Source of the DNA: Escherichia phage vB_Eco_F31
Length of the DNA stretch: 64,000 nucleotides
Direction: 5' to 3' (one strand)
Sequence record: OP870147.1
The first letter of the stretch is position 1. Every line of letters begins with the position of its first letter. The notes under the pieces are model-generated. The model made no database searches. It saw only the letters and a program-made list of their open reading frames with translations, and was not told the DNA's origin. Shown in pieces: positions 7,657-42,978 of the stretch. Both the position numbers and the translations under genes were made by a program.

Positions 7657-7682
7657 ATTCTATCATCCGTTTATAAAGCAAA
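7657..7682 (-). promoter_or_regulatory. MotA-dependent middle promoter for genes 47-46
   Basis: Perfect MotA box TTTGCTTTA + 11 nt + TAGAAT; SD GAGGAAA and ATG 7633 downstream. Confidence 0.55.
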
Positions 7683-12611: not shown

Positions 12612-13082
12612 TTAATCATGTTTCCACACCCCATCGGTATTTGACCAAAGTCGCTGATTATCTGATCCTCGCCACAGCTTTTTAGTCGGAAGATTTTTCT
12701 CATACTTCCCATCAATAATAACATCAACATATTTAAGCATTTCTAGTTGTTTAATATCTTCAAACTTATATCCTGTCCACAACCAAATGCTTTTATTGGG
12801 ATAAAGATTTTTTACTGTTTGAGCAATGCAATGAATAACATCTCGGTTATCAGGATAGAGAGGGTCACCTCCGGTTATAGTTAATCCTTCTATATAATCA
12901 TTATTCAAACATTCAATTAATTGTTCTAGTGTTTCACCAGTGAATGGAACACCATTTCTAGCATTCCATGTTGATTTATTATAACACCCTTCGCATTTAT
13001 GCAAACAACCCGTAACGAAAAGAACGACCCTGCATCCGGGGCCGTTCACAAAATCGCAAGGATAAAATCTATCATAATTCAT
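12612..13082 (-). CDS. nrdG: anaerobic ribonucleotide reductase activating protein NrdG
   Basis: Radical-SAM CLHKCEGC motif; directly downstream of nrdD. Confidence 0.9.
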   Translation of the reverse strand: MNYDRFYPCDFVNGPGCRVVLFVTGCLHKCEGCYNKSTWNARNGVPFTGETLEQLIECLNNDYIEGLTITGGDPLYPDNRDVIHCIAQTVKNLYPNKSIWLWTGYKFEDIKQLEMLKYVDVIIDGKYEKNLPTKKLWRGSDNQRLWSNTDGVWKHD

Positions 13083-14896
13083 TGGTGTTTAACCCTATGC
13101 ATGATTTCTTTATTTTTACCGAGATTAAATCCGCGTTCGTTCGGATTTCCCAAATAACCGCATGTTCTTCTTATGGTGTTCATCTTTTTAGGATCAGTTT
13201 CTCCGCAAACTGAACAAACAAATCCGTTTTCAGTAGGAGTCATTTCATGGGTACTTCCACATGTAAAACATTTATCTACTGGCATATTAACACCAAAATA
13301 ATCTAAATGTTGTGCAGCATAATCCCAGACGGCCTCAAGTCCCTTTAAATTGTTTTTCATATCTGGAAGTTCAACATAAGAAATGTGACCACCTGTCGCA
13401 ATGAAATGATATGGCGCTTCACGAGAAATCTTTTCAAACGGAGTAATATTTTCTTCTACTGAAACGTGGAAACTGTTAGTGTACCAGCCTTTATCGGTAA
13501 CATCCTTTACACTTCCATATTTTTCTGTATCGAGTTTACAGAAGCGATAACAAAGGTTTTCAGCAGGAGTCGAATATAAACTAAAAGCAAATCCAGTTCT
13601 TTCAGACCACTGTTTAAGATGAGCATTCATTTTAGTTAAAATTTCTTGCCCAATATCACGACCAACAAGAATATTCAATTCGTGAATACCAATGTATCCT
13701 AAAGACACTGAACTTCTACCGTTTTTAAATAACTCAATTATGTCGTCATCAGGTTTAAGACGAACCCCGAATGCACCTTCTTGGTAAAGAATAGGAGCAA
13801 CAGTCGCTTTAACTCCTTTTAAGGAACTAATTCTACACATCAAAGCTTCAAAACACAGGTCCATTCGTTCGTTAAATAGCTCAACAAATTTCTGTTCATT
13901 GAACTGTGTTCCAATATAAGAATCTAACGCAATACGAGGAAGATTCAGTGTTACAACACCAAGATTATTACGTCCATCAAGAATTTCATTACCAGTCGAA
14001 TCTTTCCATACGCTCAAGAAACTACGGCAACCCATTGGAGAAACTGGAACTGAAGAACCGGTAATAGCTTTATTATTCTTAACCGAAATAATGTCAGGAT
14101 ACATTCTTTTGCTTGCACATTCTAACGCAAGTTGTTTAATATCATAGTTTGGATCATCTTTATAAAGATTAACACCTTCTTCAACAAACATAACAAGTTT
14201 AGGAAAAATAGGAGTTATTCCATCACGACCAAGACCTTTAATGCGGTTTTTAAGAATTGCCTTCTGAATCATTCGTTCAGTCCAGTCAGTTCCCGTACCA
14301 AATGTAATTGTTACAAAAGGCGTTTGTCCGTTTGAACTAAAGAGAGTATTTACTTCGTATTCATAAGCTTGGAATGCGTCATAGACATCTTTTTCTGTTT
14401 TAGATTGAGCATAATTCAACGCATCAGCGATTTGCCATTTTTCTGCATCTTCAACATGTTTAGCGTATGTGCGTTTAACATAAGGAGAAAGAACTTTATC
14501 TACATTCGCAAATGTAGTTCCGCCATACTGGTGTGAAGCAACTTGTGCGGTAATTTGTGCCATAATTGCAGTAGCAACACCAATAGATTTAGGCGTTTCA
14601 ATTTGAGCATTGCCTAATTTAAATCCATTCTCAAGCATCCCCTTTAAATCGACTAAACAGCAATTGGTAAACGGAAGAGCAGGAGAATAATCAATATCAT
14701 GCATGTGAATGATTCCGCTTTCATGCGCATTCATAATAAAAGACGGGACCATATTTTTGGCAATGTGCTTAGACACAATACCAGCCATAAGGTCCCGTTG
14801 AGTTGGAAAAACACGAGAATCTTTATTAGCATTCTCGTTCAAAAGATCTTTATTAGTTTTATAAATTAATCCTTCAATTTCTTTTTCAATTTTCAT
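13079..14896 (-). CDS. nrdD: anaerobic ribonucleoside-triphosphate reductase NrdD
   Basis: 605 aa, C-terminal glycyl-radical motif RRTCGYLG and Cys-rich zinc site; uninterrupted (no intron). Confidence 0.95.
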   Translation of the reverse strand: MKIEKEIEGLIYKTNKDLLNENANKDSRVFPTQRDLMAGIVSKHIAKNMVPSFIMNAHESGIIHMHDIDYSPALPFTNCCLVDLKGMLENGFKLGNAQIETPKSIGVATAIMAQITAQVASHQYGGTTFANVDKVLSPYVKRTYAKHVEDAEKWQIADALNYAQSKTEKDVYDAFQAYEYEVNTLFSSNGQTPFVTITFGTGTDWTERMIQKAILKNRIKGLGRDGITPIFPKLVMFVEEGVNLYKDDPNYDIKQLALECASKRMYPDIISVKNNKAITGSSVPVSPMGCRSFLSVWKDSTGNEILDGRNNLGVVTLNLPRIALDSYIGTQFNEQKFVELFNERMDLCFEALMCRISSLKGVKATVAPILYQEGAFGVRLKPDDDIIELFKNGRSSVSLGYIGIHELNILVGRDIGQEILTKMNAHLKQWSERTGFAFSLYSTPAENLCYRFCKLDTEKYGSVKDVTDKGWYTNSFHVSVEENITPFEKISREAPYHFIATGGHISYVELPDMKNNLKGLEAVWDYAAQHLDYFGVNMPVDKCFTCGSTHEMTPTENGFVCSVCGETDPKKMNTIRRTCGYLGNPNERGFNLGKNKEIMHRVKHQ

Positions 14897-18782: not shown

Positions 18783-19742
18783 TTATGATTTTAATGCATT
18801 CATTGCGTTAAAAAGTTTAGAATACTGCAACTGGAGATTCGTTACAACACTTTGAGCATCACGAAGCTTAGCTTGTGCTTTGTCAAGTTCAACAGACAGT
18901 TGGTCCATAGTGGCCTTGATTTGATTGTAATGGTAATCTTCGGCCGGAAGAAGGTCATTAGAAACATTTAGTTTTACTGCAGACAGTTTGCACACATTTG
19001 GCAAACCTTTAAACATTGATTTAGCCGAAGTAGAATAAGCACTTAGGACTTCGGCTTGTTCAATTGGGGTCCCAGTAAGCGATGCTTCAAACAATGCATT
19101 TTCCTTTTTAAGATTTTGATAGTATTCAGAGTCTTTGTGCCACCATGGCGCAGGAACCTTTTTACCAATAGATACACGAGCCTGGATAGCGATATTGCCC
19201 TTATTCTTGATAGGGTCGATAATATTAAGCTCACGAGAATAAATTGCTTTAATCTGGTGAATATTATCACCTAACACTTCCAACGCTTGGTGGAATACAC
19301 GAGCAACGTTATCATTCTTAGGTTTATACGTGAGAGTGAACTCGTTCTCACTGATAACCATGATTTCCAACTTATCGTAAGTATATTTCAAATGTTTCAT
19401 GTTAATTGCTTGAGGACGAATACGAGAAGCAATGGCCATCAGATTGTTAAGGTTATTCCGGAACTGCTTAGCGAAATATTGTCCTTCACCGCCAATACAA
19501 AAATTACGAAGTTTCTGTTTGGCCAATAAACGGCTGAACTCACCATTTTTAATGAACTCTTTAACGGGTGTGTTAGTAACGCATTCAAATTTAGTAAACT
19601 TACGAGAATTAATCCCATAATACGAACAGATTTCCTCAATCTCTTCAGGAGTCTTTACAGGCATACGGATAGGATTAGGTCCTGGAGTATATGCGTTCGA
19701 GGTAAATTCTTTGATAAGTTCTTTACGTGTAATAAAAGCCAT
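18783..19742 (-). CDS. hypothetical protein with C-terminal coiled coil
   Basis: 319 aa; own promoter cassette upstream. Confidence 0.6.
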   Translation of the reverse strand: MAFITRKELIKEFTSNAYTPGPNPIRMPVKTPEEIEEICSYYGINSRKFTKFECVTNTPVKEFIKNGEFSRLLAKQKLRNFCIGGEGQYFAKQFRNNLNNLMAIASRIRPQAINMKHLKYTYDKLEIMVISENEFTLTYKPKNDNVARVFHQALEVLGDNIHQIKAIYSRELNIIDPIKNKGNIAIQARVSIGKKVPAPWWHKDSEYYQNLKKENALFEASLTGTPIEQAEVLSAYSTSAKSMFKGLPNVCKLSAVKLNVSNDLLPAEDYHYNQIKATMDQLSVELDKAQAKLRDAQSVVTNLQLQYSKLFNAMNALKS

Positions 19743-30200: not shown

Positions 30201-30414
30201 AAGGAATTTCCTCATCGGTGGCAAGGTCATATTCGACCAATTGGATAGGCTCATTAATACCATATCCACGTACAGTGATATCAGTTGTCGGATAGTTTCC
30301 AGTAATATCACCCATTCTAAATGCTTCAGTGAATGATTGCTCGCCTGAGCAACTAAACCAGGCGGCAAAACATTTTAAAACACCTTCAGACCCTTCTATA
30401 ATCAATTTAGCCAT
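30190..30414 (-). CDS. hypothetical protein
   Basis: 74-aa ORF; ATG overlaps stop of grcA-like gene. Confidence 0.45.
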   Translation of the reverse strand: MAKLIIEGSEGVLKCFAAWFSCSGEQSFTEAFRMGDITGNYPTTDITVRGYGINEPIQLVEYDLATDEEIPYVD

Positions 30415-30777
30415 TATAGACTCTCAGTAAAGGTACGAGCGATAACGTCGCGCTGCTGTTCCGGAGTCAGAGAGTTAAAGCGAACTGCATAACCGGATAC
30501 ACGGATGGTCAACTGCGGATATTTTTCTGGATGCTTAACTGCATCTTCCAGAGTTTCACGACGCAGAACATTAACGTTCAGGTGTTGACCACCTTCAATT
30601 TTAACTTTAGGGTTGATGTTCAATTTCAATTTCACGGGCATTCAAACCGTAGAAAATTTCCGGGTCTACAATAGCGTCTTCTTTAAAAGTCTTAGAGACA
30701 ATAATCCGGGCTTGAGTACCGTCTTCAAAATAAATAGTGCCTTTGTGTGTGCCTTCAAGAATTTGATATGCTTTCAT
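30414..30777 (-). pseudogene. grcA: grcA/yfiD-like glycyl-radical cofactor gene, split by a 1-nt frameshift
   Basis: N-part ATG 30777 to stop 30607 (56 aa); C-part 30641..30414 in the +1 frame ends [33 protein letters not shown]; the two parts align colinearly to GrcA across the shift. Confidence 0.6.
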
Positions 30778-30783
30778 ATAACC

Positions 30784-31092
30784 TCAATTAGAAAATAAAT
30801 TTATCCAAGTTTTTTCTTTAATCAAAAATGGGTCGGAATTAAACGCCATTAAACTTTGAGTGATTAATCCCTTAAATGGCCCATCAATAAATTCCATTTT
30901 GAAATGTGGAATACTAGTCATCAACCGTGCATTAGGAGCAGTACAAAGAACCTGCTGCCCTGCGAACGGACCTTTAGTCAAACGGTATCGTTTAGGTTTA
31001 AAATGGTAAATCTCGTAATTTTCTACAAGGGCCCTTTTATTGCATACTAGGCTGTTATAACAATATTCAAAAACTTCAATATTGGTCATCAT
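30784..31092 (-). CDS. hypothetical protein
   Basis: 102-aa ORF. Confidence 0.5.
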   Translation of the reverse strand: MMTNIEVFEYCYNSLVCNKRALVENYEIYHFKPKRYRLTKGPFAGQQVLCTAPNARLMTSIPHFKMEFIDGPFKGLITQSLMAFNSDPFLIKEKTWINLFSN

Positions 31093-31693: not shown

Positions 31694-31801
31694 CCCATTA
31701 CCGCACTTGGGCTCGACCTTATTACAGGTTGGAAAAGGTACATCACTCAGAGGACTCGACGTTCATGAGGAGAGGTTGCGTTTCCCTTTATTAGGCAAGA
31801 A

Positions 31802-42293: not shown

Positions 42294-42637
42294 TCAAAAA
42301 CGCTACTCGGCTTACGGCAAAGATATTTCCTCGAATCGATAATTCGGTGCGCCGTTTCTGCTGTGATGTAAGGGGATATTAAAAAATCGTAAAGATTTAT
42401 TAAGACCAGTCCTTACTCAGGGAACATCAGTCCGACGACTTACCGGTAGCGACCCGGCTTCTTATTTTGGCATATCATCAATTTGCTCTCGACGCCGACG
42501 CCATAGATTAATAGCTTCATTAACACATTCGGCGTTTGGTATATGACGGCAATAATATAATGATTCGCGTTTCTGGAACCGATGTTGCAACGGGATTTCG
42601 TTTAAAAGGTCTTTACGGTCAAAGTATTCAAAACTAG

Positions 42638-42805
42638 TTAACCCGGAACGGTTTTAAGAAACTTCCAATGTCCGAATTCATTTTTAAAATAAACATAATC
42701 AGCATGTTGATATAATGAATTAATTAACCTATCGGAAATAACTGTTTCACGTTCGTTAAAATAAAACGTTAAATCATGAACTACCAGATACACATTGCCT
42801 TTCAT
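42638..42805 (-). CDS. hypothetical protein
   Basis: Start placed at ATG 42805 (MKGNVYLVVHDL...), SD GAGGAAAA, just downstream of tRNA-Arg. Confidence 0.45.
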   Translation of the reverse strand: MKGNVYLVVHDLTFYFNERETVISDRLINSLYQHADYVYFKNEFGHWKFLKTVPG

Positions 42806-42823
42806 ATTTTCCTCACTTGAAGT

Positions 42824-42900
<77 letters not shown>

Positions 42901-42903
42901 GAT

Positions 42904-42978
42904 TGGTGACCCTGGCTGGTTTCGATCCAGCTACCTATCAGTTATGAGCTGACAGCTCTCCCATTGAGCTACAGGGCC
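42904..42978 (-). tRNA. tRNA with CAU anticodon (Met, or Ile2 if lysidine-modified)
   Basis: 75 nt with CCA; acceptor GGCCCTG/CAGGGTC, anticodon loop CTCATAA, T-arm GCTGG/CCAGC; 3 nt from tRNA-Arg. Confidence 0.85.

Follow-up and report, generated by a model that had tools for sequence, protein, structure and literature searches.

Two autonomous glycyl-radical cofactors, E. coli YfiD (GrcA) and phage T4 Y06I, are the only two biochemically validated spare parts for restoring oxygen-cleaved pyruvate formate-lyase (PFL) (PMC8683613, citing Wagner 2001). The structured domain of YfiD comprises residues 61-127 (PMC8683613), and members of the family (IPR011140) are single chains of ~120-127 amino acids (aa). 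Here we describe the vs.6 locus of Escherichia phage vB_Eco_F31, located at 30414..30777 on the minus strand of a 64-kb stretch of its genome (the whole of which is called the window), which is, judged from its sequence, the RB69-type ortholog of T4 vs.6/Y06I and encodes a GrcA/YfiD-like autonomous glycyl-radical cofactor. It resembles T4 Vs.6/Y06I (UniProt Y06I_BPT4) in its orthologous position and in a 120-aa design that joins a diverged N-terminal half to a Gly_radical domain, and it resembles E. coli GrcA in that the C-terminal 60 residues are identical, the underlying host-identical tract being present in T4 as well (98.4% identical to E. coli grcA). Unlike Y06I and GrcA, the locus has a frame broken by one base, with products of 56 aa and, at best, 75 aa. 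As encoded, it is therefore not the single chain typical of the family, since the frame breaks after codon 56; removal of one base restores a single intact GrcA-type chain, and the relatives are all intact there.

The original prediction had described two overlapping minus-strand frames, 30607..30777 and 30414..30641, colinear with GrcA, and both were recovered exactly. The upstream frame, a phage-type, AT-rich 56-aa N-terminal fragment that ends at a premature TAA, gave no domain match in a Pfam search. The downstream frame, a 75-aa open reading frame (ORF) starting at an internal ATG and representing the true GrcA frame from 30606 downward, contains the whole glycyl-radical domain (Pfam Gly_radical E = 5.6e-19; NCBIfam GrcA 139.9 bits). 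The reconstructed 120-aa protein matched Pfam Gly_radical (PF01228, E = 2e-18) and, in BLASTP, E. coli GrcA with 74% identity over 100 residues; its last 60 residues are 100% identical, as had been noted in the original prediction. Its phage-type 5′ half aligns with GrcA at the protein level only (~35% identity over residues 22-59). The glycyl-radical motif RVSGYAV, encoded at 30483..30503 (minus strand) with the radical glycine codon GGT at 30492-30494, is identical to that of E. coli GrcA. The window belongs to a Mosigvirus (an RB69-type T-even phage) whose closest record is APCEc01 (97.8% identity over 24 kb). An intact 363-nt vs.6, compared with 364 nt here, occupies the same position in RB69, NBG1, APCEc01, T2 and T4, and the RB69 gene is annotated in RefSeq as 'autonomous glycyl radical cofactor GrcA'. 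The gene order vs.8-vs.7-vs.6-vs.5-vs.4 is that of RB69, APCEc01 and T4, with regB following vs.4 in the T4-type order. Pfam, NCBIfam, BLASTP and synteny thus all agree with the proposed kinship to GrcA and Y06I. One result speaks against a straightforward GrcA assignment: the repaired protein scored 159.1 bits (residues 18-120 against positions 23-126 of the 126-position profile) and missed the NCBIfam GrcA (TIGR04365) equivalog cutoff of 170 bits, because the N-terminal half of Vs.6 has diverged.

Alignment with RB69, NBG1 and APCEc01 revealed exactly one extra base in the window's vs.6. The coding strand reads CAT CAA CCC TAA AGT, compared with CAT CAA CCT AAA GTT in RB69 and NBG1, so that the CC run of these two phages is a CCC run here (30610..30612, minus strand), the insertion creates the premature TAA stop (30607..30609, minus strand) and the frame switch falls in the protein at ...EIEHQP|KVKIEGG. 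The one-nucleotide offset between the frames had been correctly predicted, and its site had been placed a few codons too early. The change would amount to a single C added to the CC run, just upstream of the host-like tract. The linker between the two vs.6 halves (30607..30640; GAAATTGAAATTGAA plus codon 54) is hypervariable: codon 54 encodes H, Q, T or P, depending on the phage, and OES_C-2 carries a 6-nt in-frame deletion in the same linker. The insertion falls in this indel-prone linker, 12-20 nt upstream of the junction with the tract.

A 71-nt probe was compared with 50,697 phage records, a collection that does not include the vB_Eco_F31 genome. The insertion was absent from all 568 matching records, the best match being 70/71 (98.6%) and every match showing a gap, and an exact 36-mer spanning the insertion gave no match in IMG/VR. 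In a collection of 15 billion proteins the 56-aa fragment was found once, as WBF80810.1 ('autonomous glycyl radical cofactor') of vB_Eco_F31, and the repaired 120-aa protein on 32 contigs. Without the extra base, both halves of the window's vs.6 match the intact NBG1 allele at 100% identity, indicating that there has been no further decay; neither the additional lesions nor the relaxed constraint of a decaying pseudogene was found. Going by these comparisons, the insertion is either a private lesion of very recent date or an error of base calling; it is not a programmed frameshift conserved among relatives. A pseudogene, an error and a +1 frameshift had all been offered as explanations in the original prediction; the programmed +1 frameshift fell with the singleton status of the insertion, and pseudogene and error are not separable from sequence.

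We lean slightly towards a real mutation, very recent in origin, that leaves a dispensable gene null or leaky. In RB55 (T4 species, KM607002.1), vs.6 (about 200-590) has a 13-nt deletion that removes CGGTTATGCAGTT, the SGYAV codons, and no vs.6 coding sequence is annotated, making it an independent null allele and indicating that vs.6 is dispensable and has been lost elsewhere. The two cases are alike as independent disruptions of the same gene in T-even phages, and differ in that the window has a 1-nt insertion upstream of an intact domain, whereas RB55 has lost the radical-glycine codons and leaves no room for slippage rescue. Across the 64 kb, only two indels relative to APCEc01 break coding sequence, that in vs.6 and a second private frameshift near 42656. 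The latter, a 1-nt shortening of an A5/T5 run in 42462..42853, splits the ortholog of RB69ORF150c/APCEc01_156 (114-130 aa, unknown function) into ORFs of 71 aa and 42 aa and was found in none of 121 related records. The remaining 1-2 nt indels are all intergenic, with homopolymer differences at 7682, 21764, 22923, 24732, 26076, 31706, 32476 and 32800; those at 31706 and 32476, at least, are shared with other phages, which marks them as natural polymorphism rather than error.

This indel pattern is compatible with a clean assembly and two real mutations in dispensable genes, and two rare consensus errors would fit it equally well. The latter fit weighs against a real mutation, as do the second private homopolymer frameshift in the window and the look of the lesion itself, since an error in the consensus or in base calling would likewise leave one private base change in a short run and an otherwise undamaged gene. 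An error of sequencing or assembly, with the phage really possessing an intact 363-nt vs.6 of the NBG1 type, is accordingly a serious competitor whose probability falls somewhat short of even. It would explain why the insertion is a singleton among the 568 records and is seen on one contig of the protein collection, why the rest of the allele matches the intact one of the 32 contigs at 100% identity, why the changed base sits in a mononucleotide run and why a similar private event lies 12 kb away. It fits less well with there being just two such events in 64 kb, each in a small non-essential ORF, with long homopolymers elsewhere that match the relatives or show polymorphisms common to them, with a CC-to-CCC run that is short for a typical homopolymer error, and with the existence of natural vs.6 loss alleles such as that of RB55.

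The 3′ half of the locus has a different history from its 5′ half. Maximal-segment analysis delimited a putative host-derived conversion tract at 30424..30598 (minus strand), 175 nt long with 3 mismatches to E. coli grcA. The nucleotide alignment to grcA that the original prediction had proposed gave 96.8% identity over the 3′ 185 nt of vs.6 in all 5,426 complete E. coli genomes, so that the near-identity noted for the protein holds at the nucleotide level too. The rest of the 64-kb window gave no megablast match to any of these genomes; since nothing else in it matches E. coli, the host likeness of the 3′ half is far beyond chance, and the identity is well above that of the rest of the phage. 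Composition agrees with what had been noticed from the letters: GC content is 0.46-0.48 in the host-like half versus 0.29-0.38 in the flanks, and GC content at third codon positions (GC3) is likewise higher in the C-terminal part (0.38) than in the N-terminal part (0.27). The tract starts at Glu68 and covers the YfiD structured domain, and the disordered N-terminal region is the counterpart of the phage-type 5′ half. A near-identical host stretch thus stands beside a diverged phage 5′ half, and vs.6 is, as these comparisons describe it, a mosaic of an old AT-rich phage 5′ half and an E. coli grcA tract encoding the whole structured radical domain.

When the 3′ 186 nt of E. coli grcA were searched against all phage records, the result was bimodal: 638 records of T4/T2/RB69 type were at least 95% (up to 99.5%) identical to E. 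coli, and the others 60-90%. Host origin and fusion to a phage homolog, as originally proposed, are therefore upheld; the capture is not peculiar to this genome, and its supposed recency holds for the clade, or for a process that recurs, and not for this phage. In maximal-segment analysis the match to E. coli is free of mismatches over 172 nt in T2 and over 175 nt in Shigella phage SsoM_113. GC3 in T2 rises from 0.18 to 0.45 into the tract; phage-type genera show no such rise (0.28-0.30). Winklervirus, Karamvirus, Slopekvirus, Pseudotevenvirus, Krischvirus and T5-like phages specify an almost identical amino-acid sequence at 71-84% nucleotide identity, and none of them has a long host tract; selection on the protein cannot therefore explain the identity to the host. 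The synonymous divergence of the window from T2 amounts to 0.39 for the 5′ half (90% nucleotide identity in the N-terminal half) and 0.15 for the 3′ half, and the flanks are more diverged (vs.7 85%, vs.5 72% and wider flanks 75-80% identical). The lower divergence of the tract suggests that it is younger than the split between Tequatrovirus and Mosigvirus, or has been refreshed since. Chimeric assembly or contamination was rejected as a source of the tract, which is present in 638 independent genomes including that of T4.

Among more than 80 enterobacterial and Pasteurellaceae grcA genes, E. coli was the best donor, the identity of the window's tract declining from 96.7% for E. coli to 92.9% for E. 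albertii, ~92% for Salmonella, ~91% for Citrobacter and ~85% for Klebsiella. By this ranking the donor is specifically E. coli. A control search with Salmonella grcA found no phage above 91.9%, which equals the distance between E. coli and Salmonella, and so no Salmonella-type tract. Transfer from host to phage is indicated by the host-like GC3, by the equal synonymous divergence (dS) of the two halves of E. coli grcA (0.17 in each half against E. albertii) and by the bias of unique phage substitutions within the tract, 8 of which run from GC to AT and 3 in the opposite direction. Transfer from phage to host was rejected, as the E. coli tract diverges from E. albertii and Citrobacter like the rest of grcA and has a host-like composition.

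A reciprocal pattern was found in Klebsiella phages. In Jiaodavirus pKp20, a 164-nt tract differs at 3 positions from Klebsiella grcA (from an NCBI cluster named K. variicola), whereas the Jiaodavirus tract has 9 mismatches in 103 nt to E. coli; the 3′ half of the gene has a GC3 of 0.60 and the 5′ half one of 0.23. In total 142 Klebsiella-phage records share 90-96% identity with Klebsiella grcA, compared with 84-87% for the E. coli phages. An exact 29-mer search of metagenomes for a bacterial donor of the Jiaodavirus tract returned a phage contig as the sole match; the Klebsiella donor was found by protein search and in Klebsiella contigs. That sister genera each carry a tract matching their own host speaks for gene conversion by the host gene as a recurrent event.

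T-even phages recombine with homologous DNA inside the infected cell. They are also virulent and degrade host DNA, and host-to-phage flow is therefore usually thought rare. We propose that vs.6 acquired the tract from the host chromosome through homologous recombination (gene conversion), after which the tract would have been inherited with, or refreshed within, the T4/T2/RB69 lineage. The broader proposal, that the catalytic half of vs.6 evolves in concert with host grcA because recombination during lytic infection repeatedly overwrites the phage copy, is in our estimate evenly poised on the sequences compared. Two points tell against such conversion: spread from phage to phage after one capture would likewise yield a clade-wide tract, and the GC-to-AT bias rests on 11 sites alone.

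An improbable alternative is that one ancient capture has been kept identical by selection on nucleotides or codon usage, with neither recent nor repeated conversion. The radical domain is almost invariant in protein sequence across phages and hosts, grcA is strongly codon-biased, and T2 and Mosigvirus share one 5′ breakpoint, all of which such a history would accommodate. Synonymous sites are nevertheless free to change, as the other T-even genera show with near-same amino acids, 75-83% nucleotide identity and low GC3, and the hosts themselves differ there (dS 0.17 for E. albertii and 0.3 for Citrobacter, each against E. coli). Moreover, the tract is less diverged between Tequatrovirus and Mosigvirus than are the 5′ half and the flanks, and Klebsiella phages carry a tract of Klebsiella type.

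Intragenic recombination between host and phage is familiar from auxiliary metabolic genes, as in the psbA mosaics of cyanophages. The vs.6 pattern resembles that of cyanophage psbA in its host-identical tract, host-like composition, phage-type flanks and host specificity by lineage, and differs from it in occurring in virulent T-even phages of enterobacteria and in being limited to a single structural domain within a very small gene. No description of the nucleotide-level identity between vs.6 and grcA was found in the literature searched, and a prior mention is possible; nor did the search turn up any publication on vB_Eco_F31. The gene is already known and the frameshift, a minor strain-level event in a dispensable gene, is ordinary; the reciprocal pattern of E. 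coli and Klebsiella is modestly novel. It offers a simple, testable case of gene conversion from host to lytic phage in the best-studied phage family, and if recurrent conversion is real, vs.6 would be a natural, datable recorder of DNA flow from hosts to virulent phages and of past host use.

If the insertion is real, translation would stop after 56 residues and the radical domain would not be made, except by +1 slippage at CCC_UAA. Translation of the 75-aa ORF alone, as a minimal GrcA2/GrcA3-like spare part in a two-part or short-form gene, is very improbable, even though the entire structured domain lies within the ORF and natural short GrcA2/GrcA3 families of 78-80 aa exist. YfiD without residues 1-60 still supports PFL catalysis in vitro with ~4-fold lower activation, but its binding to cleaved PFL was too weak for measurement by isothermal titration calorimetry (PMC8683613). 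The internal ATG lies inside the translated upstream frame and has no usable Shine-Dalgarno (SD) sequence, the best duplex (-3.3 kcal/mol) being at background level and wrongly spaced, and an exact look-up of the 75-aa sequence found it recorded as a protein nowhere in the protein collection. Such a product is thus not absurd on sequence grounds, yet no evidence of its production was seen.

In the prfB frameshift, an upstream SD-like sequence acts as the stimulatory element. The CCC run and the stop that follows it in the window form the shifty stop CCC_UAA_A (30612-30606), which is like known +1 shifty-stop sites in placing a stop after a CCC proline codon with functional downstream sequence in the +1 frame, and unlike them in being a private insertion that is not conserved in relatives and has no evident stimulator. 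A programmed +1 ribosomal frameshift at CCC_UAA, required for full-length Vs.6 and possibly regulatory, is scarcely credible: peptidyl-tRNAPro could re-pair on CCU in the P site ahead of the stop, the +1 product would be exactly the wild-type protein of RB69 and NBG1, CCC_UGA is prone to +1 shifting in E. coli and phages Q54 and SPP1 make use of CCC_UAA (PMC3082878), but the site occurs in none of the 568 relatives, on no IMG/VR contig and on a single contig of the protein collection, the upstream GAAATTGAAATTGAACATCAA has no SD-like stimulator by inspection, UAA is recognised by both release factors, bare CCC_UGA generally shifts at 2% or less (PMC3082878), and such a site arises automatically with any 1-nt insertion in the run. 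Slippage at CCC_UAA would probably yield ~1-2% or less, by analogy at most a 'compensatory' leakiness of the kind reviewed in PMC5009743.

The break may also be felt downstream. The ATG of vs.5 (30412..30414, minus strand) overlaps the vs.6 stop codon (TAATG, 30412..30416), an overlap also present in RB69, T2 and others, and is preceded by a weak SD (-2.7 kcal/mol). Translation of vs.5 is thus probably coupled to that of vs.6, to judge from this arrangement, and the overlap together with the weak SD suggests that the premature stop ~190 nt upstream may lower vs.5 expression through polarity. The last ~10 nt of vs.6 are phage-type in all lineages, perhaps serving vs.5 initiation.

In an intact Vs.6, the host PFL activase would place the glycyl radical on the C-terminal domain, and the activated domain would replace the oxygen-cleaved C-terminus of host PFL. 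By analogy, the phage copy would supply the host's own radical domain and keep PFL running in the micro-oxic gut. Formate is the reductant of class III (anaerobic) ribonucleotide reductase, and it is possible that upkeep of PFL also sustains the formate supply for the phage enzyme. The genes for this reductase and its activase, NrdD and NrdG, had been placed at 12612..14896, coordinates that agree with the APCEc01 annotation mapped onto the window. The further suggestion that a GrcA-type cofactor might act on NrdD chemistry was not borne out: the domain is PFL-type and identical to that of GrcA, and YfiD and T4 Y06I are the only proteins for which activation by PFL activase and rescue of O2-cleaved PFL are shown (PMC8683613, citing Wagner 2001).

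The NCBI record of vB_Eco_F31 calls the 56-aa fragment a glycyl radical cofactor despite its having no radical domain. This 'GrcA' label is misleading, and the locus should rather be annotated as a frameshifted vs.6/GrcA ortholog. NCBI also attributes phage Vs.6 proteins to E. coli, Salmonella enterica or Enterococcus faecalis, on contigs that are ~165-169 kb or tiny; these proteins with bacterial labels come from T-even phage contigs hidden in bacterial assemblies.

Upstream of vs.6, its SD sequence GAGG (30782..30785, minus strand) overlaps the vs.7 stop codon and forms an SD:anti-SD duplex of -6.3 kcal/mol, which ranks within the best 10% of the local background. Elsewhere in the window, the tRNA-Met gene at 42904..42978 has two 1-nt indels relative to APCEc01 and is still called by ARAGORN, which places the anticodon at position 33 rather than 35. 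At 18976..19026, inside the ortholog of APCEc01_210 (a hypothetical protein), a short and strongly diverged patch shows a net gain of 24 nt (in frame) relative to APCEc01.

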